Shown: one piece after another, positions 2,817 through 28,750 of the stretch
Position numbering within the stretch: the stretch's first letter is position 1
Layout of the letters: each line of letters begins with the position of its first letter
DNA from: Ignisphaera sp.
GTDB lineage: Archaea; Thermoproteota; Thermoprotei_A; Sulfolobales; Ignisphaeraceae
Direction of reading: 5' to 3'
DNA length: 29,184 nucleotides
Assembly: GCA_038889075.1 (NCBI GenBank)
Contig: JAWAHS010000010.1
Coordinates: 23,068-52,251 of the forward strand
The notes under the pieces: generated by a model
What the model saw: only the letters and a program-made list of their open reading frames with translations
Database searches by the model: none
Told to the model about the DNA's origin: nothing
Translations under genes and position numbers: made by a program

Positions 2817-3036
2817 ATACAGCCCTCTTAAAACCATTACATTTCGTAAAGCCTTTAATGTATAGGGGAAATAAAAAACTTTTATGATTTTAACCAGAAA
2901 TATTTTCCACTTTATGGACTCGGCTCTTCTTCTATAGATGCTAGAATCGCCGTAGGAGATGTATAAATAGTGCTGATACTGCTGCTGACAACGATATGTA
3001 TATCAGTATAGCCTCTCTAATCCAGATGCTATGCTA

Positions 3037-3888
3037 CTATATGTTGTTTCTAATCCATTCGACCATGTTTTTGATGCGTTCTCTCCATCCAATTTCGTGA
3101 AGCGGTGAATGTCCACATTCTGGATACACTATCAGCTCTTTCTTTAGAGTTTTTAATCTACTGTAGGTTCTTCTACTTGCTTCAATAGGTATTATATTGT
3201 CTTTTTCACCATGTATGAGTAATGTTGGAATTTGTATCCTTTCAACGTATCTCCAAAATTCTCTAGATGCCTTCCAAATTTCAACCAGTAGCCTTATTGT
3301 TGTATCTCTTAATACAAGTTCATCCTTTCCCATAGCCTCTAGAAGCTCTCTATCCATCCTCTTCATACCCTCCTCAATCTGTTGCTCTGTGAATGGTAGC
3401 TCTATCCTTTTCCTTGGAAAGAGAATCGATGCGATGGTTGCGAAAATTAGTGTTGAAAATCTTCTAGTTTCAGGGATCAGCACCGCGGGAGCGACAGCAA
3501 CCACAGCATCTCCTACCCTTCCGTATTTTCCTGCATAGAGTAGAACTATCAACCCACCCATACTGTGCCCTATTAAAACCGTCCTCTCCCCACCAAAAAT
3601 TCTCTGAACATGCATTGTGAATGTCTCTAAATCCACTAGAAAATCATTAAAGGAATCAACATAGCCTCTTTCTAAATTCTGTGCTGTTCTCCCATGGCCT
3701 CTTTGATCATGTATACAGACACCATATCCATAGCTGGCCAGCTCCTTACCGATATGTATATAGAAACCACTATGGGAAGTAAAACCGTGTGAAACAATAG
3801 CAAGCTCTTTAAAGGACTCGGGAAGGATACATCGATAAAAAACCTTCACACCTGTATCCAAACTTGCAAAATCTTCAATGATTTTCAA
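3037..3888 (-). CDS. alpha/beta hydrolase, lysophospholipase/monoacylglycerol lipase-like
   Basis: HGFTSH oxyanion motif, DQRGHG, GHSMGG nucleophile elbow, HGEKD (Asp) and GHS (His). GGTGA RBS before the TTG start. Confidence 0.9.
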   Translation of the reverse strand: MKIIEDFASLDTGVKVFYRCILPESFKELAIVSHGFTSHSGFYIHIGKELASYGYGVCIHDQRGHGRTAQNLERGYVDSFNDFLVDLETFTMHVQRIFGGERTVLIGHSMGGLIVLLYAGKYGRVGDAVVAVAPAVLIPETRRFSTLIFATIASILFPRKRIELPFTEQQIEEGMKRMDRELLEAMGKDELVLRDTTIRLLVEIWKASREFWRYVERIQIPTLLIHGEKDNIIPIEASRRTYSRLKTLKKELIVYPECGHSPLHEIGWRERIKNMVEWIRNNI

Positions 3889-4177
3889 ACTATCTTCACC
3901 AAAAATATACTCACCCCAACTGATTTTAAACTAATAATATCCAACCTAATGTGTTCCAGCTTTTAGCAACTTCACAGCACTATCATTCAGTCAAAGCCGT
4001 CTATCATTAATCAGGTTAATACCTAGGAATTGATACTAGGTAGTGCTAACTATGATAATTCAGAGCTCTCTGCTCCATATACATATATCAATGCTCTAAA
4101 GATTATATAGAGCCTACTGGGAAGGAACTATTAGTACCGGAAAGACCAAAAAATACTGTTTTACAGTAGCAAATGGA

Positions 4178-4782
4178 TTAGGTCTTGGAATATTGTTTTT
4201 CTATGATTTTTCTTATCCTTTCAACTTCTTCGAGTATTTTCTGCTCTATGCTACTTCTCTCGATAGTGAAGAGTGGTTTACCTTTAACCATAGTTATTAT
4301 AAGATCTCTCATCTCTAGAAAGTCATCTATTCCTATAATTTCTGCTTCTGCTATCTTACTCCTTCCTCCAGAAGGACCTGTATAGCCCGCAGTATAGATG
4401 AATACGGAGCCTATTCTAGATCTTCTCGAGATGGGACCTTGTATAATATCAGCTGACATTACTCGCGAATATGGAACAAGGTGTTTCATCTTCCACCATA
4501 CACCTCTTTCTACAGCAATACCATCTTCAGCAATGGTATACCAGATAGAGTCATACTACTTTCTTATCCGGTAGGATATAAAGATGGATATCAATACAAC
4601 TATTAGTGGTGGAATAAGGGTGTATGGCCAAGCCCAAATCCATGTATTGTGCATGGTATAGTAGATTACTAGAAGCGGTATAAGTGAAGAAAGAAAGAGT
4701 AAAGTAGCAACAATAAGCAGGTAGATATATGGTAGACCTTTATAAAGTTTGGATGGGGTTTAAACCTCTTACCAATCTCCAA
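4178..4782 (-). pseudogene. disrupted membrane protein with a bacterial PH (bPH_2/DUF304-like) domain
   Basis: Manual translation: GGTGG RBS, TTG at 4782, MEIGKRFKPHPNFIKVYH, then a 2-nt frameshift in an ATATAT run (about 4723-4730). It continues IYLLIVATLLFLSSLIPLLV...ISIFISYRIRK, hits an in-frame TAG (4556-4558), then reads YDSIWYTIAEDGIAVERGVWWKMKHLVPYSRV...QGPISR...IYTAG. Confidence 0.8.
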
Positions 4783-5213
4783 CTAAACCACCAAGCTAGT
4801 GCAATTCTACATGCCTTATAACCACATATGTTTCCAAAGCCTAGAACAGGTTCAAAAGTTACAGACCAGCCTGAGATACATCTAGTGAAAACTAGTAGCA
4901 ACACCCTACTACATTGATATGGCTATAGAGGGAGTTGGTATGCTAAAAAGCTCTGCATCTAAAATTTTATGGAAGATACCAGAATATCTGTTATCAAAAC
5001 TGTTTTCTCTGGTAGTACATCTATATCTTGAATTTATAGCTATTGCAATATCTTCTCACTAAATAAAATTTGTGCTGTTAGAGAAATCTGAATGTTAATG
5101 AGAAGGCTATACTTCCGAGGTACATTTCTACTCTACCTTTTCTCTCCTCAGTTAGAAAAATGGATAGGGAGTTGATGATGTTAGAATACTGAGATATACA
5201 GCAATCTTTTGAT

Positions 5214-6089
5214 CTATACGTTCTCTGGGAAGAGTGGTCTAGCACCTTTTTCTCTAAATACTTCAACCACTCTGTTTTGCTCTTCAATGGATAGTTTTCT
5301 GAATCTTTTTCCAGCGTTTAGAATCATGGGCCACAGCCTAAGGTCTCCGGCCATAGAGTATGTCGCAACAGGTTCCTGTGACAATGTGTACCAGACGGCC
5401 ATATCTATATCGTCTTGACCGTCAAAGGGTTCATACCATGTTGTATACCTTCTTTCACCTACGTATCTCCTCTTGGCAACGGATTTGATAGCGATGACAC
5501 CGATATCCCGATCCAATGCAGCTTTAAGCACTGGTCTGAAATCATTTTCAGGTCTCGGTATAGTCATGGCAGCAGCGTAAACCGGTATCAATACTGTATC
5601 GAAATCGAATATCTCCAATGCTTTTAAAACTATTCTCATGTCGGAGTGTGCAGTTATGCCAATGAATTTTATCAATCCCTGATCACGTGCTTCTATAAAG
5701 GCTTTTGCTGCACCCTTTTCACTAAAAATTTTATCCAATTCATCTAGAGAGCTGACTGCGTGAAACTGGTAGACATCGATGGATTCGATACCAAATCGTG
5801 AAAGAGTTGTTCTAAGCTCCCTCCAAGCACCTTCATATGTTCTCTCAAGGGTTTTCTCAGCAACAACAAGCCTATCTCTATACTTCTTTATTAGAGAGCC
5901 CAGCCTAGTTTCAGCCTCTGCATAGCTGGGGGCGATATCAATAATATTGATACCCTCACCAATAACCTCTTCAACTACCTTAATAGCTAGTTGGGGATCG
6001 GGATGCACACCAGGTCCATAGCCTCCAATAGCAAGAACGGAAACTTTAAAATTCGTTCTTCCCAATCTTCTGTACTCCAATATAAACAC
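5214..6089 (-). CDS. aldo/keto reductase
   Basis: YRRLGRTNFKVSVLAIG, DIAPSY (Asp/Tyr), EKT (Lys), YQFH (His), GLIKFIGIT. Confidence 0.92.
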   Translation of the reverse strand: MFILEYRRLGRTNFKVSVLAIGGYGPGVHPDPQLAIKVVEEVIGEGINIIDIAPSYAEAETRLGSLIKKYRDRLVVAEKTLERTYEGAWRELRTTLSRFGIESIDVYQFHAVSSLDELDKIFSEKGAAKAFIEARDQGLIKFIGITAHSDMRIVLKALEIFDFDTVLIPVYAAAMTIPRPENDFRPVLKAALDRDIGVIAIKSVAKRRYVGERRYTTWYEPFDGQDDIDMAVWYTLSQEPVATYSMAGDLRLWPMILNAGKRFRKLSIEEQNRVVEVFREKGARPLFPENV

Positions 6090-6126: not shown

Positions 6127-6471
6127 AACCTATTGGATGTGAAAAGCTATAGCATTATATTGAGAGAAATAGCTGTACTCTGCGGAGTATACATACACAG
6201 CTTACAGCCCTTTATAATCCAGTCTTCTCCCCACCCTATGTAGATACTATTGCTGTGAAGAAGTACGTGAATATAGAAAAATTTTTAAACTAGTCTAATT
6301 ATGTTTAGAGGATTTGGTGTTGATTATTGTATATAGTGTGATCGATAAACAACATATACATGTATATACAGAGAAGGATGTGAAACACATAGAGATTGAG
6401 ATAAGCTACTACACATACAGCTACACCACCCACTACCTCTGTAATGCATATGTATTCTAAGGTTGATATCT

Positions 6472-7776
6472 ATGCAGATACTGTACTGGAACTCTACTCT
6501 AGAGACTATACCACGTAGTGAATTAGAGAAGATGCAGCTAGCTAAACTAAAGGAACAGGTAAAAAGAGTTTACGAAAGGTGCTACTACTATCGTAGGAAG
6601 ATGAGAGAGGCTGGTATCGCTCCCGAAGATATTAGAAGCCTCAACGATACTAGAAAACTACCATTTACAACAAAAGACGATTTAAGAGATGCGTATCCCT
6701 ATGGTACCCTAGCTGTCGACCTCTCGGAAGTTGTTGAAGTTCACGGTAGTAGTGGTACGACAGGTAAACCAACGTTATCATTCTATACACAGATTGATAT
6801 AGAGAACTGGAGTGAGGTGATGGCTAGAAGCTTAACAGCTATAGGTATAACAAAAAGCGATATAGTGTTTATAGCATATAACTATCACATGTTTACAGGA
6901 GGTCTCGGTTTCCACTATGGAGCTCTGAAAATTGGTGCAACAGCTATACCAGCAGGTGTTGGCTATACACAGAGACAGATAATGATGATAAAAGATCTAG
7001 CTGTTACAATGCTTACCTCAGTTCCAAACTATGCTCTTAGGCTTGCTGAAGTAGCTTTTGAAATGGGTATAGATCCAGCTAAAGATACAAGAGTAAGAAA
7101 AGGTATGTTTGGTGCAGCACCTTGGAGTGAAGAAATGAGAAGTAGAATAGAGAAGATATGGGAGATGGCAGCATACGATATGTACGGTATGAGCGAACTT
7201 TACGGTCCTGGTGTTGCTTCTGAGTGTATACATAGGGAAGGTCTTCATGTTTGGGAGGATCACTATCTTGTTGAGGTTGTTGATCCTAGGACAGGCGATG
7301 TTTTGGAGCCTGAGGAGAGGGGTGAGCTAGTGGTGACAACTCTATCAAAGGATGCAATGCCTCTAATAAGATATAGAACAAGGGATATAACAAGAATACT
7401 GGATGTCAAACAGTGTCTATGTGGAAGAACACATAGAAAAATAGATAGAATACAGGGAAGAACAGACGATATGTTCATAGTAAACGGAGTAAACATATGG
7501 CCATCAGCAATAGAGGAGGTGCTTTTGAGAGAACCTCTTGTAGCTCCATACTACCAGATTGTTCTTGAGAGGGACGATGCACTTGATAGAATGATTGTTG
7601 TTGTTGAAGCTGTTAAACAGCTCAGTGATAGAGATAGAGAGATTTTGGAAAAGAGGATTCAGAGAGATTTAAAGGAGGCTATAATTGTTACACCTGTTGT
7701 TGAGGTTGTCGATCCGGGTACCCTGCCAAGATTTGATGGTAAGCCTAAAGTTGTTGTGGATAAGAGGTCTATATAG
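6472..7776 (+). CDS. paaK: phenylacetate--CoA ligase family (aryl-acetate CoA ligase), copy 1
   Basis: LPFTTKDDLR, P-loop HGSSGTTGKP, FTGGLGFHYG, YGMSELYGPG, PLIRYRTRD, GRTDDMFIVNGVN, LPRFDGKPK. ATG at 6472 follows an AGGTTGA RBS; alternative TTG 6463. Confidence 0.93.
   Translation: MQILYWNSTLETIPRSELEKMQLAKLKEQVKRVYERCYYYRRKMREAGIAPEDIRSLNDTRKLPFTTKDDLRDAYPYGTLAVDLSEVVEVHGSSGTTGKPTLSFYTQIDIENWSEVMARSLTAIGITKSDIVFIAYNYHMFTGGLGFHYGALKIGATAIPAGVGYTQRQIMMIKDLAVTMLTSVPNYALRLAEVAFEMGIDPAKDTRVRKGMFGAAPWSEEMRSRIEKIWEMAAYDMYGMSELYGPGVASECIHREGLHVWEDHYLVEVVDPRTGDVLEPEERGELVVTTLSKDAMPLIRYRTRDITRILDVKQCLCGRTHRKIDRIQGRTDDMFIVNGVNIWPSAIEEVLLREPLVAPYYQIVLERDDALDRMIVVVEAVKQLSDRDREILEKRIQRDLKEAIIVTPVVEVVDPGTLPRFDGKPKVVVDKRSI
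6587..6683. repeat. 97-bp inverted repeat (1 mismatch); partner 11364-11460
   Basis: Manual alignment to the reverse complement of 11364-11460; only an ATC/ATT codon differs. Confidence 0.9.
6783..6818. repeat. 36-bp perfect inverted repeat; partner 11229-11264
   Basis: CTATACACAGATTGATATAGAGAACTGGAGTGAGGT is present in both paaK copies. Confidence 0.88.
7025..7104. repeat. 80-bp perfect inverted repeat; partner 10943-11022
   Basis: Manual alignment; encodes NYALRLAEVAFEMGIDPAKDTRVRKG in both copies. Confidence 0.9.
7146..7168. repeat. 23-bp perfect inverted repeat; partner 10879-10901
   Basis: AATAGAGAAGATATGGGAGATGG is present in both copies. Confidence 0.8.
7237..7516. repeat. 280-bp perfect inverted repeat, left arm; partner 10531-10810
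   Basis: Manual base-by-base comparison found no mismatch, including at synonymous positions. Confidence 0.93.
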
Positions 7777-7779
7777 AGT

Positions 7780-9633
7780 ATGTCCAGGAGTAGACTGCTT
7801 GGTAAAGCTGGTGAAACAGCTTTTCTTCTTGGTAATGAAGCTATTGCCAGAGGAGCCATCGAATACGGTATAGGTGTTGCAGCTGCTTACCCTGGAACAC
7901 CATCAAGTGAGATTATCGGTACCCTTGCCCAAATTGCTAAGAATCTCGGCATACACGTTGAGTGGAGCGTCAATGAAAAAACAGCTTTTGAAGTAGCTTA
8001 TGCAGCTGCTATGAGTGGTGTTCCAAGCCTAACGGCTATGAAACACGTTGGACTTAATGTAGCTTCTGATCCTCTTATGTCCAGTGCATACACAGGTGTG
8101 AAAGCCGGCTTTGTTATTGTTACAGCTGACGATCCGTATATGCATAGTAGCCAGAATGAGCAGGATAACAGATGGTATGGTTTACACGCATACATACCTG
8201 TTCTAGAGCCTGCAGGTGTTCAGGAGGCTAAGGATCTTACATATATGGGGTTGGAGCTCTCAGAGAGATTGGAGCATCCATTTATCCTTAGATCGCTCAC
8301 TAGGGTAAGCCATGCTAGAGCACCTGTAAAGCTTGGTGAAATAGGATCTCCCAGATCATCAGGGGTATTTCTGCGAGAACCTGAGAGATGGGCTGTGATT
8401 CCAGCACATGCAAGGGTGATGAAGCGTAGAGTTCTTGAGAAGTGGATGAGGATTGGAGAGATGCTAGCAGATCTACCCTATAATAGGATTGAGGGTGATG
8501 GTTCCACGCTCATCGTTGCCTCAGGTATAGGGTATGCATACACTAGGGATGCGGTAAACATATTGGGTTGTAGAGCTAGGATTCTGAAAATATCTACACC
8601 CGTTCCCCTACCTAGGAAACTCGTTGAAAAGTCTTTAGATGGTGTTGAGAAGATACTCGTTATAGAGGAGACGGATCCTGTTGTAGAGATGCAACTCAAA
8701 TCCATACTAGTAGATATCGGTATGAATATCGAGGTACACGGTGGAGATCTCATTGGAAGATTTGGTGAACTTACAATAGACAGGGTTGCCCAAGCTATAG
8801 CAAAGGTATGTGGTATACCATGGCTGCCTCCACAGCCACTTAAACCAGAAATAGAGCCTCCACCGAGAAGTCCTATTCTATGCCCTGGCTGTCCCCACAG
8901 AGCTACATTCTATGCACTTAAGCTAGCAGCCAAAAAGGTTGGTGTAGACCCTATATACACAGGGGATATAGGATGCTACAGTCTTGGTATATCACCTCCA
9001 TTTAGAGTTCAAGATACTATAGTAGAGATGGGTGGAAGCATAGGGCTTGCAAATGGCTTTGCACATACAGTTAGAGATAGACCCGTTGTAGCTATTCTAG
9101 GAGATTCAACATTTTTCCACGCAGGCATACCACCTCTTGTAAATGCTGTATACAATAGAGCTCCTATGCTAATTCTAGTACTGGATAACGAGACGACCGG
9201 CATGACTGGTTTCCAACCACATCCAGGCACCGGGCTAACTGCAAAAGGTGAGCAAACGAGGAGAGTATTCATTGAGGATATCGCTAAAGCTGTAGGTGTA
9301 TCCCATGTAGAGGTCTTCGATCCTTATAGTGTCAGGGAAGCTGTTGAAACTATAGAGAGAGGGCTTAGGGTGGCCCTAGGTGGAGATGTTGCACTTCTTG
9401 TAGCTAGAAGAACGTGCTCTCTACTCGCAGTAAGGCTAGGTCTGCTTAGGGATGTATACTCTATAGATAGCAGCAGATGTATAGGATGTCTGCTATGTGT
9501 GAAAAATTTGATGTGCCCAGCTATAACCGTTGAGGATGGTAGACCACATATAGTTAAAGCTCTCTGCCGCGGATGTGGTGTGTGTACACAGATATGCCCT
9601 GTTAAAGCCATAGATAGAGGAGGTGCTGGATGA
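7780..9633 (+). CDS. iorA: indolepyruvate:ferredoxin oxidoreductase subunit alpha
   Basis: GNEAIARG, YPGTPSSEI, NEK, MKHVG, CPGCPHR, GDIGCY, TPP motif GDSTFFHAG...DN, and two C-terminal ferredoxin CxxCxxC...CP motifs. Confidence 0.95.
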   Translation: MSRSRLLGKAGETAFLLGNEAIARGAIEYGIGVAAAYPGTPSSEIIGTLAQIAKNLGIHVEWSVNEKTAFEVAYAAAMSGVPSLTAMKHVGLNVASDPLMSSAYTGVKAGFVIVTADDPYMHSSQNEQDNRWYGLHAYIPVLEPAGVQEAKDLTYMGLELSERLEHPFILRSLTRVSHARAPVKLGEIGSPRSSGVFLREPERWAVIPAHARVMKRRVLEKWMRIGEMLADLPYNRIEGDGSTLIVASGIGYAYTRDAVNILGCRARILKISTPVPLPRKLVEKSLDGVEKILVIEETDPVVEMQLKSILVDIGMNIEVHGGDLIGRFGELTIDRVAQAIAKVCGIPWLPPQPLKPEIEPPPRSPILCPGCPHRATFYALKLAAKKVGVDPIYTGDIGCYSLGISPPFRVQDTIVEMGGSIGLANGFAHTVRDRPVVAILGDSTFFHAGIPPLVNAVYNRAPMLILVLDNETTGMTGFQPHPGTGLTAKGEQTRRVFIEDIAKAVGVSHVEVFDPYSVREAVETIERGLRVALGGDVALLVARRTCSLLAVRLGLLRDVYSIDSSRCIGCLLCVKNLMCPAITVEDGRPHIVKALCRGCGVCTQICPVKAIDRGGAG

Positions 9634-10274
9634 AGATAGAGATAGCTGTATGCGGTGTCGGTGGCCAAGGAGTTGTGACTATGAGTGCTGTAATAGGGGA
9701 GATTTGTGTTAGACGTGGATTAAATGTAGTAGCTGCTGAAACCCATGGTATGGCACAGAGGATGGGATCCGTAGAGGTTTTTGTTAGAATAGGGGATGTA
9801 GAAGCACCGTTAATCTCTCCTGCATCAGCAGATTATGTCGTAGCTCTAGAGATGGTAGAGGCGCTAAGGGGTGTTAGATATCTTAAGAGATGCGGATGGA
9901 TTCTCGTTAGCAATATATACATACCTCCACCGGGTAGCGATAGAGTACCATCAAGGAGACAGGTAATTGAACTGCTATCAAAGCTGCCTATCAAAATGAT
10001 TGTTATAGACGTTGAGGAAATCATAAATAGGTTGGAAGATCCTAGAGTTGTTAATATGGCTATGCTTGGTGCTCTTCTATCTTTTAAAGACATATCGAAA
10101 ATACTACCAATAGATGTAGCTGAAGATGTTGTACAGGGGATGCTTGGTAGTGTAAATAGGGAAGCTCTTGCCATGGGATACAGGCAAGCTTTGGAAAAAA
10201 TGAATAACGGAAACGGTATATACGTATCGAACGTCTGTACCTACTCTACTGCTCCCTCTTCCAATCAAGGCTAG
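9630..10274 (+). CDS. iorB: indolepyruvate:ferredoxin oxidoreductase subunit beta
   Basis: GVGGQG, ETHGMAQRMGSV, NMAMLGAL. ATGA overlap with the iorA stop. Confidence 0.93.
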   Translation: MKIEIAVCGVGGQGVVTMSAVIGEICVRRGLNVVAAETHGMAQRMGSVEVFVRIGDVEAPLISPASADYVVALEMVEALRGVRYLKRCGWILVSNIYIPPPGSDRVPSRRQVIELLSKLPIKMIVIDVEEIINRLEDPRVVNMAMLGALLSFKDISKILPIDVAEDVVQGMLGSVNREALAMGYRQALEKMNNGNGIYVSNVCTYSTAPSSNQG

Positions 10275-11578
10275 CCATTAGATACTATGTACACTCTCTT
10301 AGCCTTACCTTCACTTCTCGGAAGCATACCTGGATCGACAACCTCAATCTCCGGTTCCACAACTATGGCTTCTCTTAACTCATACTGCAACCTTCTAGCT
10401 AGGAAATTCCTTTCCTCATCACTAAGTTTTCGAGATGATTCAACCTTGATTGAGAGTCTATCACCACCATCACTCTTCACAACCACAATCTGATACTCAT
10501 TACCAACAAGAGGATTGCTGTGGAGAACAACCTCTATTGCTGATGGCCATATGTTTACTCCGTTTACTATGAACATATCGTCTGTTCTTCCCTGTATTCT
10601 ATCTATTTTTCTATGTGTTCTTCCACATAGACACTGTTTGACATCCAGTATTCTTGTTATATCCCTTGTTCTATATCTTATTAGAGGCATTGCATCCTTT
10701 GATAGAGTTGTCACCACTAGCTCACCCCTCTCCTCAGGCTCCAAAACATCGCCTGTCCTAGGATCAACAACCTCAACAAGATAGTGATCCTCCCAAACAT
10801 GAAGACCTTCATGGTATTGGCAATCTATAGCGGTTCCAGGTCCATAGAGCTCGGCCATACCATAGATATCGAATGTCTCCATCTCCCATATCTTCTCTAT
10901 TTTTCTCCTAAGAGAATCGCTCCACATTTCAGCACCGAAAACACCTTTTCTTACTCTTGTATCTTTAGCTGGATCTATACCCATTTCAAAAGCTACTTCA
11001 GCAAGCCTAAGAGCATAGTTTGCTATTCCCGCAATCATCGTTGTCCCCAGCTTGACCATAACGTAGATCTGTCTTCGTGAAAATCCCGGTCCTGTTGGAA
11101 CTATGCATGCACCTATCTTTCTAGCTCCATAGAAGAATCCAAAGCCTCCTGTAAATAGGCTGAAACTCGGTGTTATCTGTAGTATGTCCTTTTCTGTGAG
11201 ACCTGCTGATGCCAGAGATCTGGCCATTACCTCACTCCAGTTCTCTATATCAATCTGTGTATAGTACATGAATACAGGTTCTCCTGTTGTTCCAGATGTT
11301 CCGTGAACTTCTACAACCTCTGTGAAATCAGTTGATAGGTATCCAAATGGCTGTGTCTCCCTCAAATCGTCTTTTGTTGTAAATGGTAGTTTTCTAGTAT
11401 CGTTGAGGCTTCTAATATCTTCGGGAGCAATACCAGCCTCTCTCATCTTCCTACGATAGTGCTCTACGCCATTATATAGCCTATAGATCTGCTCCCTCAG
11501 TCTCTGAAGCTGGATCTTCTCTATATCCTCCCTCCTTGCACACTCTATGCTGGGATTCCAGATCCAGCTATCAGGCAT
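10271..11578 (-). CDS. paaK: phenylacetate--CoA ligase family, copy 2
   Basis: LPFTTKDDLR, HGTSGTTGEP, FTGGFGFFYG, FGAEMW, YGMAELYGPG, LPRSEGKAKRV. ATG at 11578 follows an AGGTGA RBS; alternative GTG 11587. Confidence 0.93.
   Translation of the reverse strand: MPDSWIWNPSIECARREDIEKIQLQRLREQIYRLYNGVEHYRRKMREAGIAPEDIRSLNDTRKLPFTTKDDLRETQPFGYLSTDFTEVVEVHGTSGTTGEPVFMYYTQIDIENWSEVMARSLASAGLTEKDILQITPSFSLFTGGFGFFYGARKIGACIVPTGPGFSRRQIYVMVKLGTTMIAGIANYALRLAEVAFEMGIDPAKDTRVRKGVFGAEMWSDSLRRKIEKIWEMETFDIYGMAELYGPGTAIDCQYHEGLHVWEDHYLVEVVDPRTGDVLEPEERGELVVTTLSKDAMPLIRYRTRDITRILDVKQCLCGRTHRKIDRIQGRTDDMFIVNGVNIWPSAIEVVLHSNPLVGNEYQIVVVKSDGGDRLSIKVESSRKLSDEERNFLARRLQYELREAIVVEPEIEVVDPGMLPRSEGKAKRVYIVSNG
10531..10810. 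repeat. 280-bp perfect inverted repeat, right arm; partner 7237-7516
   Basis: Reverse complement of 7237-7516. Confidence 0.93.
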
Positions 11579-11623
11579 AGAAATCACCTATAGAGCAACG
11601 GAGTTCCATGGATTGGTTATCTC

Positions 11624-11629: not shown

Positions 11630-12286
11630 CTATGGCATAGAGAATGGCATTTTCAGCTCTACATACATTTAGATAAACTAGCTCCATTGGCTCATCTAAA
11701 ACCACCTCAGACGAGTCTCTCTATAATATGGAACGGAATTTAAAGTTTTCGGACAAATACAGCAAAGCTATCTATATTACTGGTAGCCGACTTCCACTAT
11801 CGTCATAGGTTAGTAGAACGGTTGACTTGACGTAGTTATTGGCTCCTACACAGCTAGTCTAGTTGTGGAAAGACTATATTACTAGGGTTTCTACTATTTA
11901 TTTGAAAGCTTTCAAAATCTATTGCTTTGGACTGCTAGATAGAATACAGCTGATTACTGTAGTAGGTCTAGCAATAGTAGATGGAGTAGAGCTCTTCTAC
12001 TCTGTATAGACAGCCATGCATTCTCCATGGATGATACACTTCTTCAAAAGCTTCCACAGCCTAAGAGATTCTTAGTTTTTACAGGGTAGTAGATATAATC
12101 TCTAGAAATCTTTATCAACCCCAACTATCTTACCACATCTTTGAATACATGTATAATGGATATTGCGTTTTATAGAAGACTGTATTCCTCTACATAGAGA
12201 TGTATTTTCAGTTGCATGGATTTAGAAAATCCGTAGATCTCCTTAAATTTTTAAGGTATTCTATCTCTATCTTGTGTGGTGGTTTT

Positions 12287-12994
12287 ATGGAGATTTTTGT
12301 TGGTACTTCTGGATGGGTCTATGACTGGAATGTTGGAGGTTCTCTGGATTGGTATCTAGAGAATTCCGGACTTAATGCTGTAGAGCTTAATGCTTCTTTC
12401 TATAGATTCCCTTTTCCTAACCAGGTTAAGGGCTGGGCTAGAAAAACCTCTAGCCATGGTATTAGATGGGCTGTTAAGGTCTATAGAGGAATTACACATT
12501 TTAAGAGGTTGGGTGGAAATTCTTTAGATCTCTGGATGAAGTTCTACCATCTATTTAAACCTCTTGATAGATACATAGATTTCTACCTTTTTCAAATGCC
12601 TCCAACTTTTATTAGAACTGAGGATAGTATTAATAGGATCGAGATGTTTGCCAGAGCTGTAAATCTTGGTAGCAGACTTGCTATAGAGTTTCGACATAGT
12701 AGCTGGTTCCTAGAAGAGGTTGTTGAAATATGTAGAAATCTGGGAATAACGGCAGTCTCCATCGATGCTCCTATAGGTAGGTGGATAGTATCGAGCAATA
12801 GTATAGTGTATCTGAGGCTCCACGGTACTGATGTCTGGTATGGATACAACTACAGCTTTAAGCAACTTAAAGAGATCGCAGAAAGCATTATATCTCTTGA
12901 TCCGAGAAAGATCTACATATTCTTTAACAACAATCACTGGATGCTTGAAAATGCACAGACAATGTTAAATATACTAAAATCTTCAAAGATATGA
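12287..12994 (+). CDS. DUF72 (YecE-like) protein
   Basis: IFVGTSGW, AVELNASFYRFP, ITHFKRL, LFQMPP, IEFRHSSW, YLRLHG, IFFNN. ATG at 12287 follows a GGTGG RBS; the ORF-track start at 12200 is probably too long. Confidence 0.92.
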   Translation: MEIFVGTSGWVYDWNVGGSLDWYLENSGLNAVELNASFYRFPFPNQVKGWARKTSSHGIRWAVKVYRGITHFKRLGGNSLDLWMKFYHLFKPLDRYIDFYLFQMPPTFIRTEDSINRIEMFARAVNLGSRLAIEFRHSSWFLEEVVEICRNLGITAVSIDAPIGRWIVSSNSIVYLRLHGTDVWYGYNYSFKQLKEIAESIISLDPRKIYIFFNNNHWMLENAQTMLNILKSSKI

Positions 12995-18201: not shown

Positions 18202-19347
18202 ATGGGTATCTGTAGGCTTTGTGGTGCTAGGGGTGCTACTATTAGTAGCGTTATAGGTGTCTGTAGCAATTGTTTGAGGAATAGAAAGGAAGGGCTTGGT
18301 GTAGCTATGGAGGTGCATAGAAGATATAGAGCAGCTCTAGGGCTTCCTCCACAGCCTCCAGAGAGTGCTAATGGTATTAGGTGTACCCTATGTGTTAATG
18401 AGTGTAGCATAGGTGTTGGAGAAACCGGCTACTGTGGACTCTGGAGCAACTGTGGAGGTAGGCTCTGTTTTGTAGAGGGGCATAGTATTGGTATACTCTA
18501 TGCATATATAGATCCTCTACCAACAAACTGTGTAGCTACACCAGTATGTCCAGCTGCTACTGGATGTGGATATCCAAAATACAGTGTTTCCAGAGGCCCT
18601 GAATACGGATACTATAATCTTGCCGTATTTTTTGCCGGTTGCAATCTCAATTGCGTCTTCTGCCAGAATTGGGATCACAAAAACATTGTTGTTTCCCCAA
18701 GCCTTAGAGGAAGGTATACGGTTTTCGATGTAGAGCTTATCGATAGAGCTGTGAAAAATGGTAGAGTTACCTGCATATGCTATTTTGGTGGCGACCCAGG
18801 TCCGCATATGGTCTATGCCCTCAAGGTATCGAGAAAAATAGTTGAGGAATCTAAGAGGAGCAGTACTGTAAAGAGGGTTTGCTGGGAAACGAACGGTCTC
18901 GAGAACCCTGGTATAGTGAGGGAAATGGCTAGGGTAAGCCTTGAATCAGGAGGTATCGTAAAAATAGATTGGAAAGCCTATACCCCAGAAGTCTACCAAG
19001 CTCTAACAGGGGTTAATGGATATAGAGCTGTTAATAGGGTAAAGGAGAACATCGCCATAGTTGCCAGCATGTCTAGGGAGAGAATGGAGATTCCACTACT
19101 AACAGTCAGCATCCTCCTTGTACCCGGATACGTCGATGAGATAGAGCTCAGCGGTATGGCTGAGTACATAGCATCCGTAGATAGAGATATACCTGTAGTC
19201 CTTCTAGCATTCCATCCAGACCATCTTCTGAGAGATCTACCACCAACGAGTATAGACCATGCCAAGAAAGCTGTTGGGATATTCAAGGAATACGGTGTAA
19301 GGAAGGTGTTCCTTGGAAATGAGTGGCTTTTAGGTCCATACTACTAG
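18202..19347 (+). CDS. radical SAM protein, PflA/AmmeMemoRadiSam-related (COG1180-like)
   Basis: GCNLNCVFCQN (CxxxCxxC); extra N-terminal Cys motifs (CRLC, CSNC, CTLCVNEC, PTNC...CPA); YFGGDP, WETNG, LLVPGY, LAFHP. Confidence 0.9.
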   Translation: MGICRLCGARGATISSVIGVCSNCLRNRKEGLGVAMEVHRRYRAALGLPPQPPESANGIRCTLCVNECSIGVGETGYCGLWSNCGGRLCFVEGHSIGILYAYIDPLPTNCVATPVCPAATGCGYPKYSVSRGPEYGYYNLAVFFAGCNLNCVFCQNWDHKNIVVSPSLRGRYTVFDVELIDRAVKNGRVTCICYFGGDPGPHMVYALKVSRKIVEESKRSSTVKRVCWETNGLENPGIVREMARVSLESGGIVKIDWKAYTPEVYQALTGVNGYRAVNRVKENIAIVASMSRERMEIPLLTVSILLVPGYVDEIELSGMAEYIASVDRDIPVVLLAFHPDHLLRDLPPTSIDHAKKAVGIFKEYGVRKVFLGNEWLLGPYY

Positions 19348-19380
19348 CTGGGTAGAGATATACAGTTGGTGGCTATTTAC

Positions 19381-19851
19381 ATGGTTCTAGCAGTAGGAGG
19401 CGTCTACGTATTTATATTTAGAGTTGACAGAGATATTCGTACAACCATAGGCTCCCTGGGCAGTGCACACCTTGTACACGGAGTATATGGTTATGTAGGT
19501 TCTGCTAGAGGAGCTGGTGGAGTAAGGGCCAGGGTTCTACACCACATTAGGAAGGAAAAGAGGAGGGTGTGGTGGCATATAGACTACCTAACGACTCTCC
19601 CAGAAACCGTACCTATGTATGTAGTATATGCTAAGACTAGCTGCGATGTTGAATCCCTTCTAGCACATCGAATCGGATTATCACCGTGTTGGAGTGGATG
19701 CACTAGGGGATTCGGCTCATCAGATAAGGATAGCTATACACATCTATACCTCTGTAGCTGTAGCGAGGAGCTGTGTATCGATAGCATAGCTGAAGCATTT
19801 AGTGCTATTGGGCTGGAACCTATAGTTGAGAAAGTAGATGATATTATTTGA
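19381..19851 (+). CDS. GIY-YIG (Uri superfamily) nuclease, DUF123 family
   Basis: GVYVF...GVYGYVGSA, RVLHH, WHIDYL, ESLLA, GFGSSD, THLY. ATG at 19381 follows GGTGG; alternative TTG 19366. Confidence 0.88.
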   Translation: MVLAVGGVYVFIFRVDRDIRTTIGSLGSAHLVHGVYGYVGSARGAGGVRARVLHHIRKEKRRVWWHIDYLTTLPETVPMYVVYAKTSCDVESLLAHRIGLSPCWSGCTRGFGSSDKDSYTHLYLCSCSEELCIDSIAEAFSAIGLEPIVEKVDDII

Positions 19852-19922
19852 GTAGATGGATAGTGCCATCTAGTGAAAAGTAGATAACCTATTTCCAGCT
19901 AGAATAGAACTGGTGGTCTGGT

Positions 19923-20807
19923 TTGGAGAAGAGGCTCATTTCAAGGATAGCGGTATTTACACTGGTATCGTATACATCTGCATTTATCCTAGACTATACA
20001 GCACTTCTAGGACTGTTTACTACAGGATGGGGTGCCACGGCATGGGGATTTTTGAGAATGTGGAGCGTTGCACTATCTGCAGTATTGTGTCTGGCGATAT
20101 ATAGGGAGGGTGTAGCTATACATATTAAACACTTCTTAAAACCGTCTAAGAAAGCCCTTGTAGGTTACCTTACGGCACCGCTCATAGTCTATGGAGCTCT
20201 AGCAATCTATATACTGATTGCCCTACCTCTAAAGCTCTTCGACTTCGGTGTATATGTGAAGATTATTGCCGAAGCTCTTCGCACAACACTACCATCGCTC
20301 TCCGAGGATCAGCTTACAAATCTAGCTACTACAGCTGCATATAGCCAGATTCTAGCAGGATATGTAGCGGCTGTAACAATAAATGCATTTTTTGCCCTCG
20401 GTGAAGAGATTGGCTGGAGGGGATATCTATACCGTATTCTAGGTGCAAGGCCAACTCTATACAATATCATTGTAGTGGGTATTCTCTGGGGATTGTGGCA
20501 CTCACCTGCAATACTGCTCCTAGGATACAACTATTCAGTTAACAGATCCATGGGTGTACTTCTATTCACATTATACACCATCTTTCTATCCTATCCACAT
20601 CTATTGGTAACCACGGCTACCGATAGTATACTTCCCGCTACCACCCTCCACGGTGCTGTAAATGCACTATGGGGTTTAACAATAGTTGCTTCGAATCTAC
20701 CAATAGAGTTGAAGGAGACTCTACTTGGATTGGGAGTTCTAGGAATAGCTGCATGGTCTATCACGTGCATACTGCTATACATAGCGTACAGGTACAGACG
20801 TAAATGA
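19923..20807 (+). CDS. CPBP (CAAX/Abi) family intramembrane glutamic endopeptidase
   Basis: GEEIGWRGYL, LWGLWH, LHGAVN and multiple TM helices. Confidence 0.93.
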   Translation: MEKRLISRIAVFTLVSYTSAFILDYTALLGLFTTGWGATAWGFLRMWSVALSAVLCLAIYREGVAIHIKHFLKPSKKALVGYLTAPLIVYGALAIYILIALPLKLFDFGVYVKIIAEALRTTLPSLSEDQLTNLATTAAYSQILAGYVAAVTINAFFALGEEIGWRGYLYRILGARPTLYNIIVVGILWGLWHSPAILLLGYNYSVNRSMGVLLFTLYTIFLSYPHLLVTTATDSILPATTLHGAVNALWGLTIVASNLPIELKETLLGLGVLGIAAWSITCILLYIAYRYRRK

Positions 20808-20930
20808 AGATGCCATTCATCGTCAACACCACAGATATTTAGAGACAGCGGTATCTACCCTCTACATAGTAAAACGGTTAGACCTCCAGCTGTAGAGATT
20901 TTATTATCCAAATAGCTACATGGTACAGCG

Positions 20931-21998
20931 ATGGTGTTTAGAGTGGACTCTAGAACTTTGAGACGGGCTAGGCTATGGCTTCCAGAGGGAGACCGCGTTA
21001 GGTGTGATGTATGTGAGAGGAGGTGTGTGATTCAATCAGGCAGTAGAGGGATATGTGGAAACTACGTGAATATAGACAATGTGCTCTACCACTTTGGCTA
21101 TGGAAGAATAAGTGCCGTTGAGAGTAGACCTATTGAGATAAAGCCCCTCTTCCACTACTGGCCGAACAGTACAGCATTAACCTTCTCGACATGGGGTTGC
21201 AACTTCTACTGTCCATGGTGTCAAAATCACCACCTGAGCTTTAGAATGCCTAGGGAGGAGGATCCTACCACACCACCTGATGAGCTGCTAAGGAAAGCTA
21301 TTCTAAATGGTGATGAGGGGTTTAGTGCAAGCTTCAATGAACCAACTGTAAACTTCGACTATCTAGTCGATCTAGCTGAGCTTGCTGTAAAGGAAGGTCT
21401 ATACTTTATGATTGTAACCAATGGCTACCTCACTAAAAATGCTCTAGACCTACTCCTACAGCTCAATGTCGATGGATGGAGTATAGATATAAAGGGGTGT
21501 CCAAAGATGAGGAGAGCACTTGTCAATATAGATCACAGTATTGTATATAGAAATGCAAGATACATAGCCGATAGAAATGGTCATGTTGAAATGGTTTACC
21601 TTGTTGTACCAAATACAAACGATTTCGATGAATGTATAGAATGGATAATAGATAGCCACATATCCTACCTAGGCCACAGCACCCCACTACACATAAACAG
21701 ATACTACCCTGCACATAAATGGCATGAACCACCAACACCCATAGAGAGGTTGAGGTGGGTAGCTGAAAGAGCTAGGGGTGAGGGTATTGAGTATATCTAT
21801 ATAGGTAATGTGGGTGATCCACAGCTTGAATCAACAAAATGCCCAAGATGTGGTAAAATTCTGATCTATAGATACAGCTATAGAGTTTGGGAATTCAATC
21901 TAGATAGAGATGGCAATAGATACAGATGCCCAAGATGCAGCTACAGCATACCAATAAAAGGAAGATACATACCGTGGAAAAGCAATACATTGATCTAA
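20931..21998 (+). CDS. AmmeMemoRadiSam-type radical SAM enzyme
   Basis: VRCDVCERRC...GICG, PIEIKPLFHYWP, GCNFYCPWCQN, FNEP, VTNGY, IDIKG, YIYIGNV, TKCPRCG, RCPRC. Confidence 0.88.
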   Translation: MVFRVDSRTLRRARLWLPEGDRVRCDVCERRCVIQSGSRGICGNYVNIDNVLYHFGYGRISAVESRPIEIKPLFHYWPNSTALTFSTWGCNFYCPWCQNHHLSFRMPREEDPTTPPDELLRKAILNGDEGFSASFNEPTVNFDYLVDLAELAVKEGLYFMIVTNGYLTKNALDLLLQLNVDGWSIDIKGCPKMRRALVNIDHSIVYRNARYIADRNGHVEMVYLVVPNTNDFDECIEWIIDSHISYLGHSTPLHINRYYPAHKWHEPPTPIERLRWVAERARGEGIEYIYIGNVGDPQLESTKCPRCGKILIYRYSYRVWEFNLDRDGNRYRCPRCSYSIPIKGRYIPWKSNTLI

Positions 21999-22039
21999 AA
22001 CTCTACCACCATTATTCTCTCTGTTCTTTGTGGCCAGAT

Positions 22040-23128
22040 CTATAGCGGGCAGTAGCTGAGGCTATGGTAGTATGGACAGTGTCCACAGTTCGGCTCACCG
22101 CCTAGACAATCAGCAGTATTTTCTCTAGTTTTTCCACAGTATTCAACAAGGCTACAGGCTAAACAAGATGGAATCCTTTTAAAGTATAGCCTATAGAATA
22201 TCCTCGCATACCTATTCCTCCATATATCGATAAGCCTGTCTTTCCCAATATAGCCTAGCACAACTTTTTTTATGTACCTATTGATTCCCAGTATATTTGG
22301 GGTCCAGCTATATGCATAGTGAATACATGGGGTTACCGCACCATCGCATCTAATAAATAGGGCTCTTTTTGATGCAAAGGGACATGATGCTGTATACTGT
22401 GTTTGAGGAGCTGTAATTCTTAGGCTAAACTCCTTGAATTCTTCTAAAGCTTTTTTAAGCTGTGTAGATAGGTCTTCTATACATTTAGTTGAGCTCAGGC
22501 ATCCAACATCTTGATCGCTATAAGGTATCGCACTGGTAAATACAACCTCGTTTACACCTAGCTCTACAGCTAGTTTGAGGAAGTACTCTACGTCAACAAT
22601 ATTTAGAGATGTTACCGTAAACAATGTTTTTATAACAGGTTTTATCTGTCCCCGCACTTGCTTAATACTTACCAATTTAGAGATGCTCTGTATAATGCTA
22701 CTGAACATTGTTGGCTGGCGAACTATGTTATAGACTCTAGGTGTTGCAGCATCTAGAGATATGTAAATCTCATCAACATACTTGACCAGAGCATCGATAA
22801 GCTCATCAATTCTAGAACCATTTGTATTTATGGCAACCTCTAATCCTAGATCTCTACACATCTTAATCATATACTGTATCTCTGGATGGATAAGTGGTTC
22901 ACCCCAGCCTGAGAAGACAATCCTACCCACATTGTTTTCAATAGCTTCACTCAGTATGTTCTTAAAGAACTTCAAATCCATACTACATGGCTTAAGGTCT
23001 AGAGCAGCCTTTCTAAAACAGTGTATACAATTCATATTGCATAGTGTAGTAATCTCGACTACAAGTTCTCTGGGATGCGATTTCGGGCTCATCATTACGA
23101 TCCAGTCAGGTGTTGAGAACTCACGCAT
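22040..23128 (-). CDS. tungsten-cofactor oxidoreductase radical SAM maturase
   Basis: EITTLCNMNCIHC, FSGWGEP, NTNG, and a Cys-rich SPASM-like C-terminus (CPF, DGAVTPC, PSCLAC, DC...PNCGHC...CPL). Directly downstream of the AOR gene. Confidence 0.88.
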   Translation of the reverse strand: MREFSTPDWIVMMSPKSHPRELVVEITTLCNMNCIHCFRKAALDLKPCSMDLKFFKNILSEAIENNVGRIVFSGWGEPLIHPEIQYMIKMCRDLGLEVAINTNGSRIDELIDALVKYVDEIYISLDAATPRVYNIVRQPTMFSSIIQSISKLVSIKQVRGQIKPVIKTLFTVTSLNIVDVEYFLKLAVELGVNEVVFTSAIPYSDQDVGCLSSTKCIEDLSTQLKKALEEFKEFSLRITAPQTQYTASCPFASKRALFIRCDGAVTPCIHYAYSWTPNILGINRYIKKVVLGYIGKDRLIDIWRNRYARIFYRLYFKRIPSCLACSLVEYCGKTRENTADCLGGEPNCGHCPYYHSLSYCPL

Positions 23129-23242
23129 TGCATTATAGCCTCGACACTCTCCTGCTGCTCGGATCTAGATGTGTAAAGAGGAGGGGGTAGCTGCGAAAAA
23201 TATATAGATTTAGTGTGGTTTGTCTCCTATATTATAGGTAGG

Positions 23243-25138
23243 CTATTGTGGTAGTAGTCCTTCTTTCTCTAGTTTGTCACTCAACCACCTAAGATCCAGC
23301 TCCTCTAGTTTTGATCTTGTTGGTCTTCCTTTAACCCAACCTCTGATAGTGTAGTACTCGGGTAGCATTTCGCCAATCCTAGCTACATAGCCCTTCGCAG
23401 GCCCCTCAGGCATAGGTTCCTCCAGCAACCTCTTTGGCAACGTATCGTATGTCTCTCCATCGCCGAAGGCTAGGACGTTGAATACCCGTTCAGCGTTGTA
23501 TATTCTTTCGCCTACCTTCTTAAGCTCATCTACAGGCATATCCCACCCTGTTACAGTAGAGAGCTGTTCTGACAGCACATCGGCCCAGTATGCAAAGGTC
23601 ACAAACTTACACACTATTAGGCTATCTACTACCGCAAACACATCTTGGAACTCCTTAACCCATGCAGCCTTACCCCTAGTCTCAAATCTATTTAGCAACT
23701 GGGGTACACCTACAACCTCTGGAGCAATCATGTAAGCCCTCAGGTGACAGCCACCCCTGTTACTTGTAGCATAGGCTAGTCCGTGTCCCTGAACTCCACG
23801 TGGATCATAGGCTGGGAGCTCCTGATCTCTAACAACCATAGCGATCTCCGGCAGACCGTACTTTCGAGCAAGTCTAGCAGCACCTTCAGCAAGGTCGTCA
23901 CCTATACCAGAGCGGTAGGCAGTTCTCCACACAAGTTCTACCAGCGTTTCACCATTGCCCCACTCAACTCTTAGCCCTCTCAATCTTTCTGGTGGCACCC
24001 TGCCCTTCTCAACAAGCTCCATTAGAGTTGCTATGGTGGCCCCCATTGATATAGGGTCTATGCCGAGTTCATTACATAGAAAGTTTGCCTTGGCAACAGC
24101 AGCTAGATCGCCTGTACCTGTATCCGCTCCAAGAGCCCAGACAGTCTCGTATTCCGGCCCCCCACCTTCACCTGTAAATGGTGGCTTTGTAATTCTCGTA
24201 TATCTTGCACACTTCATCTCACAGCCCCAGCAAGCTTCTTCTTCAGCCATCTTCCAATCCATAATCTCATCCGCTATTCTCTCACCGCTGATCTTAACAG
24301 CCTCTGGAAATACCCCTGTTCTAAAGTTTCTTGTAGGAAAGATACCGTGTGCATTTATCACATTAACCAAGACGGCCGTGCCGTACTTTGGAAGAGACTG
24401 TGATGTAACAGGAGACTTCTTTATAATATCGAGAGACTTTGCTGCTACCTCTTCAAGTCTCTCCTCGTCAGCTACCTCCGGTCTCATATGCCCTCTAACA
24501 GCTATAGCCTTAAGCTTCTTAGATCCCCATACAGCTCCATGGCCACCTCTACCTGCAGCTCTATTCTTATCATTTAGTATAGCTGCGATTTTAACAAGGT
24601 TTTCACCGGCAGGGCCTATACACGCTACCTTGACCTCCCTAGCCTCATCAGGTCCAAGTACTGGTGAAAGCTCCTCTTTTATAGCATCTGTAGTACTATG
24701 GACATCTTTACCCCAGAGGTGTTTTGCATCCCTAAGCTCAGCCTTTCCATCATATATCCAGAGGTATACAGGCTTCTCAGAGGCACCCTCAATAACAATT
24801 ATATCAAAGCCTGCGAACTTTAGCTCTGGTCCAAACTTACCACCGCTATGGGAATCGTGGATCGTCCCAGTTAGTGGAGACTTTGTTACCGAACACCATC
24901 TACCAGATGAGGGAACCCCTGTAACACCTGTGAGAGGTCCTGTTGCCACAATAGCTTTATTGCTAGGGCTTAGAGGGTTGATTCTAGGATCCACCTCCTT
25001 AAGCATATAGTATACTCCTAGACCTCTACCACCAATCCATCTCCTTAAAACGTCCTCTGGTGGTAGATCCTCTACAAGTATCTTGCCATGGGTTAGATCA
25101 ACTCTTAGAACACGACCCATATACCCTCCTATAGGCAT
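23243..25138 (-). CDS. aor: tungsten-containing aldehyde:ferredoxin oxidoreductase
   Basis: GYMGRVLRVDL, IGGRGLG, KSPLTG, GPAGEN, AAGRGGHGAVWGSKKLKAI, CWGCEMKC, PEYET, YDPRG, RGGCH, IVCKF. ATG at 25138; alternative GTG 25147. Confidence 0.96.
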   Translation of the reverse strand: MPIGGYMGRVLRVDLTHGKILVEDLPPEDVLRRWIGGRGLGVYYMLKEVDPRINPLSPSNKAIVATGPLTGVTGVPSSGRWCSVTKSPLTGTIHDSHSGGKFGPELKFAGFDIIVIEGASEKPVYLWIYDGKAELRDAKHLWGKDVHSTTDAIKEELSPVLGPDEAREVKVACIGPAGENLVKIAAILNDKNRAAGRGGHGAVWGSKKLKAIAVRGHMRPEVADEERLEEVAAKSLDIIKKSPVTSQSLPKYGTAVLVNVINAHGIFPTRNFRTGVFPEAVKISGERIADEIMDWKMAEEEACWGCEMKCARYTRITKPPFTGEGGGPEYETVWALGADTGTGDLAAVAKANFLCNELGIDPISMGATIATLMELVEKGRVPPERLRGLRVEWGNGETLVELVWRTAYRSGIGDDLAEGAARLARKYGLPEIAMVVRDQELPAYDPRGVQGHGLAYATSNRGGCHLRAYMIAPEVVGVPQLLNRFETRGKAAWVKEFQDVFAVVDSLIVCKFVTFAYWADVLSEQLSTVTGWDMPVDELKKVGERIYNAERVFNVLAFGDGETYDTLPKRLLEEPMPEGPAKGYVARIGEMLPEYYTIRGWVKGRPTRSKLEELDLRWLSDKLEKEGLLPQ

Positions 25139-25176
25139 AGGGAGCACCCACTTGTAACAGAACGTGCCTCATGGAA

Positions 25177-27698: not shown

Positions 27699-28301
27699 TT
27701 ATCGTTGGTAAAGACCTACTAGAATCCCATAGCCTACTACATGGTTTCTACAGATCTCTAGGACTTGGGTTGGTGTTGCCCCAGGTTCTATGTCCAGCTC
27801 TATATCTAGTGCTAGTACTAGGAATATGTAGCGATGTCTACTACCCGGGGGTGGACATGGTCCTCCATAGCCTATGTAGCCGAAATCGTTTAAACCTTGA
27901 ATACCTATGCTGATCTCCCTTCTATTTTTAGCTCCTACTCCTTCATCTACGGTTGTGATTGACGGTGGTATGCTGTATACTATCCAGTGATAGAATATAC
28001 CTCTAGGGGCATCAGGATCGTAAACAATTATAGCAAGACTCTTCACATCCTTTGGTATATCTGAAATCGATAGAGGTGGTGAAACATCTAGATCGTCACA
28101 TGTATACCTCTTGGGAATGGAACTAAGGTTATTGAAAGCGCTACTGGAAACCGTTAGAATCCTCTTAGACTCTTTAGCTACATCCGGTAGCGGAACCTCT
28201 TCCCCAGCACCGGGTCTGTACAAGAGATGTACAACTACACCTAGGATTACTAACAAGACTATAGCGAGGACGGCTGAAACAACAAGGGTTCTCCTAGGCA
28301 T
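27699..28301 (-). CDS. YbhB/YbcL family PEBP/Raf kinase inhibitor-like protein with an N-terminal membrane anchor
   Basis: IPKRYTCD, SPPL, DPDAP, FYHW, GYGGPCPPPG, HRY; N-terminal MPRR plus hydrophobic helix. Confidence 0.93.
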   Translation of the reverse strand: MPRRTLVVSAVLAIVLLVILGVVVHLLYRPGAGEEVPLPDVAKESKRILTVSSSAFNNLSSIPKRYTCDDLDVSPPLSISDIPKDVKSLAIIVYDPDAPRGIFYHWIVYSIPPSITTVDEGVGAKNRREISIGIQGLNDFGYIGYGGPCPPPGSRHRYIFLVLALDIELDIEPGATPTQVLEICRNHVVGYGILVGLYQR

Positions 28302-28750
28302 AGAAATCGCCTACAGATACCAATAGCTGTACCGAGGATAATAACAATTAATAGTTCTCCCAAATCTGGAGAAAGAGTTCCAGATCCATCGGCGGCTCAA
28401 TGCGAGGGACAGCACATACCTGGCTGGAGTTTCTAACAGATTTGAGTAGACCTGTGGATAAGGTGATGCTAAGCTTATAATAGGGTTATCTAAATAGCTT
28501 CTACCTCCCTAGCCCTTCTGATACGACTCTGCCATCAAGATTCACCTTCTGTATCGATTCGGTAGCCACATCACCTGCTACTTCTATGGATTTGCAATTC
28601 CCTACATACGCAATCTATTTAGAATAGTGTACACCTACACTACTGACGGATTAGATGTGTAGATGAGCGATGATAGTTTGTTACTCTCTGTCTCCCACTA
28701 AATATAGGCTTATTTATTTTACCTACATCTATACTCTTTCAGGTGTATCT

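Follow-up and report, generated by a model that had tools for sequence, protein, structure and literature searches.

Two inverted paaK paralogues of Ignisphaera evolve in concert in discrete tracts and remain distinct in the pocket block

Two ligase genes of an Ignisphaera locus, paaK_A and paaK_B, lie inverted around iorA and iorB and share identical tracts that are interleaved with diverged segments. Silent sites agree within these tracts but not outside them, the tracts evolve in concert in several lineages with conserved boundaries, and one variable block, V2, stays distinct between the two genes. We consider it highly probable that this pattern reflects ongoing, segment-limited ectopic gene conversion between the inverted paralogues, with the pocket block kept distinct. 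The latest conversions in the genome of the window (the whole stretch of DNA analysed, 29,184 nucleotides) are very recent, since its tracts hold a single difference in 516 bp, compared with 12-26% between species in the same blocks.

The locus and its shared tracts

The gene paaK_A (6463-7776, plus strand) encodes a PaaK-family aryl-acid CoA ligase and heads a paaK_A-iorA-iorB run; translation probably begins at the ATG at 6472, given a 434-aa database match, P0001, with 100% identity. Between the arms sit iorA (7780-9633, plus strand), for the alpha subunit of indolepyruvate ferredoxin oxidoreductase (IOR), and iorB (9630-10274, plus strand), for the IOR beta subunit. The diverged paralogue paaK_B (10271-11587, minus strand) is inverted relative to paaK_A, and its likely start is the ATG at 11578 (435-aa protein P0030, which has every variable and tract segment of paaK_B). 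These matches (P0001, P0030) are labelled as proteins from metagenome-assembled genomes (MAGs) of Ignisphaera sp.

Pfam and NCBIfam scans of the open reading frames found AMP-binding and AMP-binding_C_2 domains in both ligases. The PaaK equivalog TIGR02155 is the top NCBIfam match of both, with 495.8 bits for paaK_A and 424.9 for paaK_B, and neither reaches its curated cut-off of 646.3 bits. The nearest solved structures to paaK_A are PaaK enzymes of Bacteroides (4r1l_A, E = 1e-123) and Burkholderia (2y27_A, E = 3e-119). On these matches, both proteins are predicted members of the PaaK-like subgroup of ANL adenylate-forming enzymes. The iorA product passes TIGR03336 (724.5 bits against a cut-off of 650.9), and the best matches of iorB are to IOR beta, all under the curated cut-offs. 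Both paaK genes are under purifying selection, with an orthologue dN/dS of about 0.1-0.16.

In the literature excerpts available for this enzyme, IOR turns aromatic 2-oxoacids into aryl-CoA esters. With differing pockets, paaK_A and paaK_B would probably act on different aryl acids. AMP-forming aryl-acid ligases beside IOR could return aryl acids towards aromatic amino acids, a route reported from methanogens. The adjacency to iorAB gives a context for phenylacetate or another aryl acetate as a possible substrate.

A codon-anchored alignment of paaK_A (6463-7776, plus strand) with the reverse complement of paaK_B (10271-11587) reproduced to the base the five shared tracts that a preliminary description of this DNA had listed, namely 97 bp with one mismatch, and 36, 80, 23 and 280 bp, 516 bp in total. 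T1 covers 6587-6683 of paaK_A (plus strand) and 11364-11460 of paaK_B (minus strand), corresponding to residues 43-73 in the N-terminal microdomain; its 97 bp consist of two identical runs, 6587-6617 (31 bp) and 6619-6683 (65 bp), separated by a synonymous ATC/ATT mismatch at 6618. The other four tracts are perfect: T2 of 36 bp (6783-6818, plus; 11229-11264, minus), T3 of 80 bp (7025-7104, plus; 10943-11022, minus), T4 of 23 bp (7146-7168, plus; 10879-10901, minus) and T5 of 280 bp (7237-7516, plus; 10531-10810, minus). T5 encodes residues 259-351, which we take to hold the generic adenylation and hinge motifs, YRTRD and GRTDDMF. An independent repeat search recovered the same inverted arms (I1-I3).

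Over the whole genes, 964 of 1317 positions are identical, and the inter-tract segments reach only 54-59% (about 56% overall). Among these segments, the P-loop codons (about 6727-6759 in paaK_A) differ between the copies just as had been quoted earlier; the differences there are not all silent, however, because one of them exchanges AGT (Ser) for ACA (Thr).

The convergent stops of iorB and paaK_B overlap by 4 bp (10271-10274), so any terminator of either transcript must fall within the other gene. Read-through from paaK_A-iorAB would produce a transcript that is antisense to paaK_B and also complementary to the tracts that it carries in its 5' part. The region around the translation start, GGT(T)GAT..TCTATGC, has stayed similar in the two paaK genes (6458-6476, plus strand; 11574-11593, minus strand); 22 nt at the paaK_B start are 91% identical to the start region (28296-28317) of a PEBP-family gene at 27699-28301. 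There are no tRNA genes in the 29-kb window.

Concerted evolution of the tracts

Where both copies encode the same degenerate amino acid, the codons are identical in 158 of 159 cases within the tracts, versus 57 of 118 outside (Fisher P = 7e-27). By the Nei-Gojobori method, dS is 0.009 in the tracts and 1.70 outside, and dN is 0 and 0.49, respectively. Synonymous divergence is thus not uniform along the genes, as a sliding window of 20 codons also indicates, with a paralogue pS of 0.00 over 7270-7509. A GENECONV-style permutation (621 polymorphic sites, 5 sequences, 10,000 shuffles) gave a clear result for the longer runs: those of T5 (63 sites), T3 (18 sites) and the 65-bp part of T1 (21 sites) were each matched in 0/10,000 shuffles, with P = 0.007 for T2 (13 sites) and P = 0.015 for the 31-bp part of T1. 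The permutation therefore backs four tracts, T1, T2, T3 and T5, as products of conversion; for the 23-bp T4, which holds fewer than 7 polymorphic sites, the same proposal gained no significance when the tract was taken alone. Comparison with 30 A-type and 29 B-type proteins gave no resolution of the transfer direction of T2 and T4. GC3 is not raised in the tracts (0.30, versus 0.33-0.41 in the window genes), so there is no sign of GC-biased conversion.

The same process is visible at the DNA level in other species. A scan of species-representative genomes yielded 18 loci, 4 of them from Ignisphaera; the bacterial loci among L003-L018, with single or tandem paaK and no iorAB match, were set aside. 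In a second Ignisphaera species (locus L001, 77% nucleotide identity to the orthologues), the order A-iorA-iorB-B(inverted) is as in the window, and the A and B of this genome are identical to each other over runs of 102, 71 and 278 bp, equivalent to window positions 6586-6687, 7033-7103 and 7237-7514. For T1, T3 and T5, identity is 95-100% between the paralogues of one genome and 74-89% between orthologues of different genomes; for the variable segments, the corresponding values are 53-68% and 63-90%. T1, T3 and T5 are therefore persistent domains of conversion, whose boundaries nearly coincide in L001, and not separate recent accidents. T2 and T4 are identical at only 24/36 and 19/23 positions between the L001 copies; thus, at the DNA level, only these two are particular to the window lineage. 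A third species contributes part of the pattern: the 5031-bp contig L013 carries an exact 141-nt inverted repeat at its two ends (1-141 and 4891-5031), and mismatches set in directly beyond the repeat, where T5 has its right boundary, so that in this species, too, T5 is identical over at least 141 bp.

Protein trees were built from 7 A/B pairs, 2 taken from DNA loci and 5 paired by equal size of the longest listed contig; two looser pairs (P0006/P0038, P0022/P0043) were tabulated and dropped before the trees. In the tract-segment trees, A joins B of its own genome in 6 of these 7 pairs (2 identical, 4 at bootstrap 98-99), and in the tree of the variable blocks V1+V2 all A proteins separate from all B proteins at 100/100. 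With groups named from gene type and with the tests run once the trees had been seen, AU tests rejected a monophyletic B group for the tracts (p = 2e-68) and, for V1+V2, a clade of the two window proteins, W_A+W_B (p = 6e-45). Tracts therefore evolve in concert and variable segments follow orthology, and these segment-wise trees, together with the silent-site contrast, support the active recombination between the arms that had been suggested from the sequence. The remaining pair, P0023/P0040, is not homogenised, so the proteins can exist without identical tracts.

Further lineages were compared by grouping proteins on their tract signatures, with 61 best database proteins, the 2 window proteins and 6 locus translations. 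Eleven groups contain both A and B types, and within them, by a grouping that is circular for the tracts but not for the variable blocks, A-versus-B identity is always 41-57% in V2, ranges over 25-84% in V1, and in some groups reaches up to 100% in V0, V3, V4 and V5. For concerted evolution that is long-lasting and recurrent, the accessible text of Wang and Chen 2018 (PMC6053082) asks for at least five species. Here, DNA and synteny give 2 complete loci (the window and L001) and 1 partial locus (L013), and 4 further pairs are heuristic.

Reciprocal exchange, assembly and other explanations

The pattern could also be driven by reciprocal exchange, with conversion as a by-product, which we regard as unlikely. 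Here, crossovers in the tracts would invert iorAB and swap segments, leaving inversion isomers with chimeric ligases. Some database proteins look like such products: under one tract signature they combine A and B blocks in the patterns AAAAAB (P0013), ?BBBBA (P0029), AAABBB (P0019), AAABBA (P0010, P0011) and BBBAAB (P0034), P0020 and P0041 are mosaic as well, and the break points fall at tracts, with the tract signature of the lineage shared. These proteins may be genuine, as recombinants or inversion isomers, or they may come from misassembly, which across identical inverted tracts would yield the same chimeras. Reciprocal exchange is, moreover, unable to produce identity. In two pairs apparently on one contig, P0015/P0031 and P0024/P0050, the two genes agree completely in one variable block, so the transfer was non-reciprocal, and it ran in opposite directions in the two pairs. 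The order of the locus also speaks against reciprocal exchange: the A-type C-terminus is directly upstream of iorA wherever the DNA spans both genes (window, L001, L002, L013), and the complete A gene is unmixed in all three loci that have one (window, L001, L002). The preliminary description had offered recent repeated conversion or double crossovers; the former stands, and the latter is dropped, because a reciprocal swap cannot make two sequences identical and non-reciprocal conversion is needed. Crossovers may nonetheless take place between the arms.

It is rather improbable that the inverted arms serve as a system of cassette exchange, in which the tracts would act as landing pads, crossovers or long conversions between them would reshuffle N-terminal, mid and C-terminal ligase blocks, and a crossover would flip iorAB to the other promoter and pocket module. 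If so, Ignisphaera populations would carry mixed ligase mosaics and operon orientations, and the database mosaic proteins would be real alleles, not misassemblies. Real mosaic alleles would offer a natural test of how modules can be swapped inside an adenylate-forming enzyme. A site-specific invertible switch or shufflon was considered and rejected: no recombinase or integrase domain was found among the 22 window ORFs scanned (2 of them without any family), and the repeats, far from being short sites, are stretches of coding sequence 23-280 bp long.

We also consider an assembly artefact very unlikely, in which a metagenome assembler would have collapsed or chimerised the paralogues and thus created falsely identical tracts. 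Contigs of related MAGs do break in the tracts: L013 ends in its inverted repeat and L009 ends within T3, and both ends resemble assembly breaks at repeats. Bubble merging could, in addition, turn near-identity into identity. Nevertheless, an independent MAG from another species has tracts at the same positions with a sequence of their own, and the pattern recurs in further pairs at the protein level. Collapse cannot make identity out of flanks at 54-59%, and at most it hides a few differences. The perfect identity of the tracts may for this reason be overstated, with a true value of perhaps 98-99%, since assemblers of short reads are able to fuse paralogous stretches that are nearly the same.

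It is most improbable that a third paaK-like gene, foreign or from another place in the genome, was the donor that overwrote both copies: the search that had been recommended for such a copy found none in the 29-kb window, which has only two paaK matches, and none in the other fetched loci (the 21-kb L001 locus likewise holds two), and the donor would need to hit the same blocks in several species.

Purifying selection on the nucleotides themselves, through an embedded RNA or DNA element or an extreme codon preference and without recombination, has a practically negligible chance of being correct, for although the tracts overlap better conserved parts of the protein (66-75% identical to distant homologues), the orthologues differ at silent tract sites (dS of 0.64-0.82 between the window and two other Ignisphaera species; sliding-window pS of 0.16-0.82 where the paralogue pS is 0), so nothing forces these particular nucleotides, and each species has its own version of the tracts, common to both its copies. 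Protein-level selection had already been judged unable to explain the identity, and we agree: silent sites are identical within the tracts and saturated outside, and the tracts differ silently between species. Family-wide, the tracts are only moderately more conserved than V1 or V4; thus, conservation alone does not fix the tract positions.

The pocket block, the mechanism and known systems

V2 occupies 6819-7024 of paaK_A (plus strand) and 11023-11228 of paaK_B (minus strand), corresponds to residues 120-187, and is 56% identical in DNA between the two genes. According to the available part of a review, an aromatic residue of the ANL A4 motif lines the acyl pocket; placed from that account and our alignment, the A4 acyl-pocket motif lies in V2, and the pocket Phe cited for structure 4R1L in the text available aligns within V2 as well. 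V2 is homogenised in none of the 11 lineage groups examined, and conversion is absent from V1-V2 (the P-loop flank and the acyl pocket, residues 75-187), except for T2. Law and Boulanger are said to have named in 2011 the PaaK1 pocket residues Tyr136, Phe141, Ala147, Ala214, Ile236 and Pro245. These six fit the letters of 2y27_A at a constant offset of 5, and we take them to map to window residues 139, 144, 150, 218, 240 and 249. The mapped positions are all in V2-V4, and at two of them A and B have different residues (Tyr/Pro at 139, Met/Ile at 240).

We propose the following course for the segment-limited gene conversion. An old duplication would have left two inverted PaaK-family ligase genes around iorAB, and both would have been kept functional, with substrate-pocket regions that differ. 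Homologous recombination between the arms would then repeatedly copy sequence one way, as non-reciprocal ectopic gene conversion. Concerted evolution within each genome would follow for T1, T3 and T5, and in the window also for T2 and perhaps for T4. Conversion would be limited to the blocks in which homogenisation is harmless and identity is enough for strand pairing. Two causes may set the boundaries: First, chimeric pockets may be selected against. Second, an identity of 54-59% may be too low for heteroduplex formation; variable segments that are too diverged to form heteroduplex would make the boundaries reinforce themselves. Both causes together are most likely.

The patchiness of the tracts has a possible parallel in Sulfolobus acidocaldarius, in which, according to the accessible text on this species, heteroduplex is resolved in un-coordinated short patches that leave patchy markers (PMC3367456). 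The tracts fit such short-patch mismatch resolution by analogy, and it is a plausible source of the small tracts T2 and T4, as far as that text describes it. In the part available, the work relied on short donor DNAs introduced by transformation into a member of a different archaeal order, and any likeness of the Ignisphaera pathway to it is an analogy; the pathway proposed for Ignisphaera should be read as presumptive.

Gene conversion between paralogues is already known, including long-lasting and domain-limited archaeal cases, and the process is not new. The bacterial tuf genes (tufA/tufB) are listed, in the accessible text, as a case of concerted evolution by gene conversion (Wang and Chen 2018, PMC6053082). 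As with tuf, to the extent that this text describes it, two paralogues are kept similar within a genome by long-running gene conversion. As general background, the tuf copies of Salmonella are inverted, and crossovers between them invert a chromosome segment. The tuf genes resemble each other along almost all of their length and share one function, whereas here only blocks are alike and the pocket block has a protein identity of about 50%; the paaK arms also lie only 2.5-3.8 kb apart and enclose partner enzyme genes.

A closer archaeal case is the one-operon pair mtrA-1/mtrA-2 of Methanococcales and Methanomicrobiales, for which the accessible text reports long-lasting conversion of only a part of the gene (PMC4632066). 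Both cases, on that account, involve archaeal paralogues, with partial conversion and a remainder that stays different. In mtrA, as described there, homogenisation affects one domain, and the second, gained by fusion, is a different transmembrane domain; in paaK, the homogenised blocks are interleaved in one catalytic fold and the genes are inverted. The PaaK1 and PaaK2 enzymes of Burkholderia cenocepacia, the second and third closest solved structures to the window ligases, are 69% identical and have different aryl pockets that give different substrate ranges, according to the available parts of the articles (PMC4498308, PMC3417372). Unlike the window pair, their genes are placed by these texts on different chromosomes, and the text available on the two enzymes held no report of conversion between them.

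For the paaK case itself, the 26 genes of Wang and Chen 2018 (PMC6053082) do not include paaK, and neither 'phenylacetate' nor 'paaK' occurs in the accessible article text. A literature search found, among the articles accessible to it, nothing joining Ignisphaera with phenylacetate or iorA and iorB with paaK, and one on mosaic conversion and substrate specificity gave no comparable prokaryotic enzyme case among the matches listed. What is notable here is the interleaving of the blocks, the boundaries shared between species and the protected pocket block. This makes the locus a clean archaeal case of a rule that is often proposed but seldom seen this sharply, namely that parts with generic chemistry are homogenised and the specificity block escapes. 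In practical terms, orthology and paralogy will be confounded in whole-gene trees of these ligases, and annotation by identity will obscure the distinction between two enzymes that probably differ. Assemblies from short reads break at the tracts, as in L013 and L009, and may be joined wrongly there.

The 5-kb paaK-iorAB-paaK module is kept across species, and the flanking genes differ in each. In L013, a gene of the sodium:solute symporter family (2971-4479, minus strand, 502 aa) lies between iorB and paaK_B, which overlap in the window; going by its family, it is a possible uptake step for ligase substrates. The neighbours of the module are an aldo-keto reductase and a DUF72 gene in the window (5214-6089, 12200-12994), a KaiC-like ATPase and HerA/NurA in L001 (8263-9639, 15985-18772), and a rubrerythrin-like gene and a PLP enzyme in L002 (2308-4138). 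Farther along the window, at 18202-25147, Pfam matches mark three radical SAM genes (one with SPASM) and DUF123, CAAX-protease-like and aldehyde ferredoxin oxidoreductase genes.
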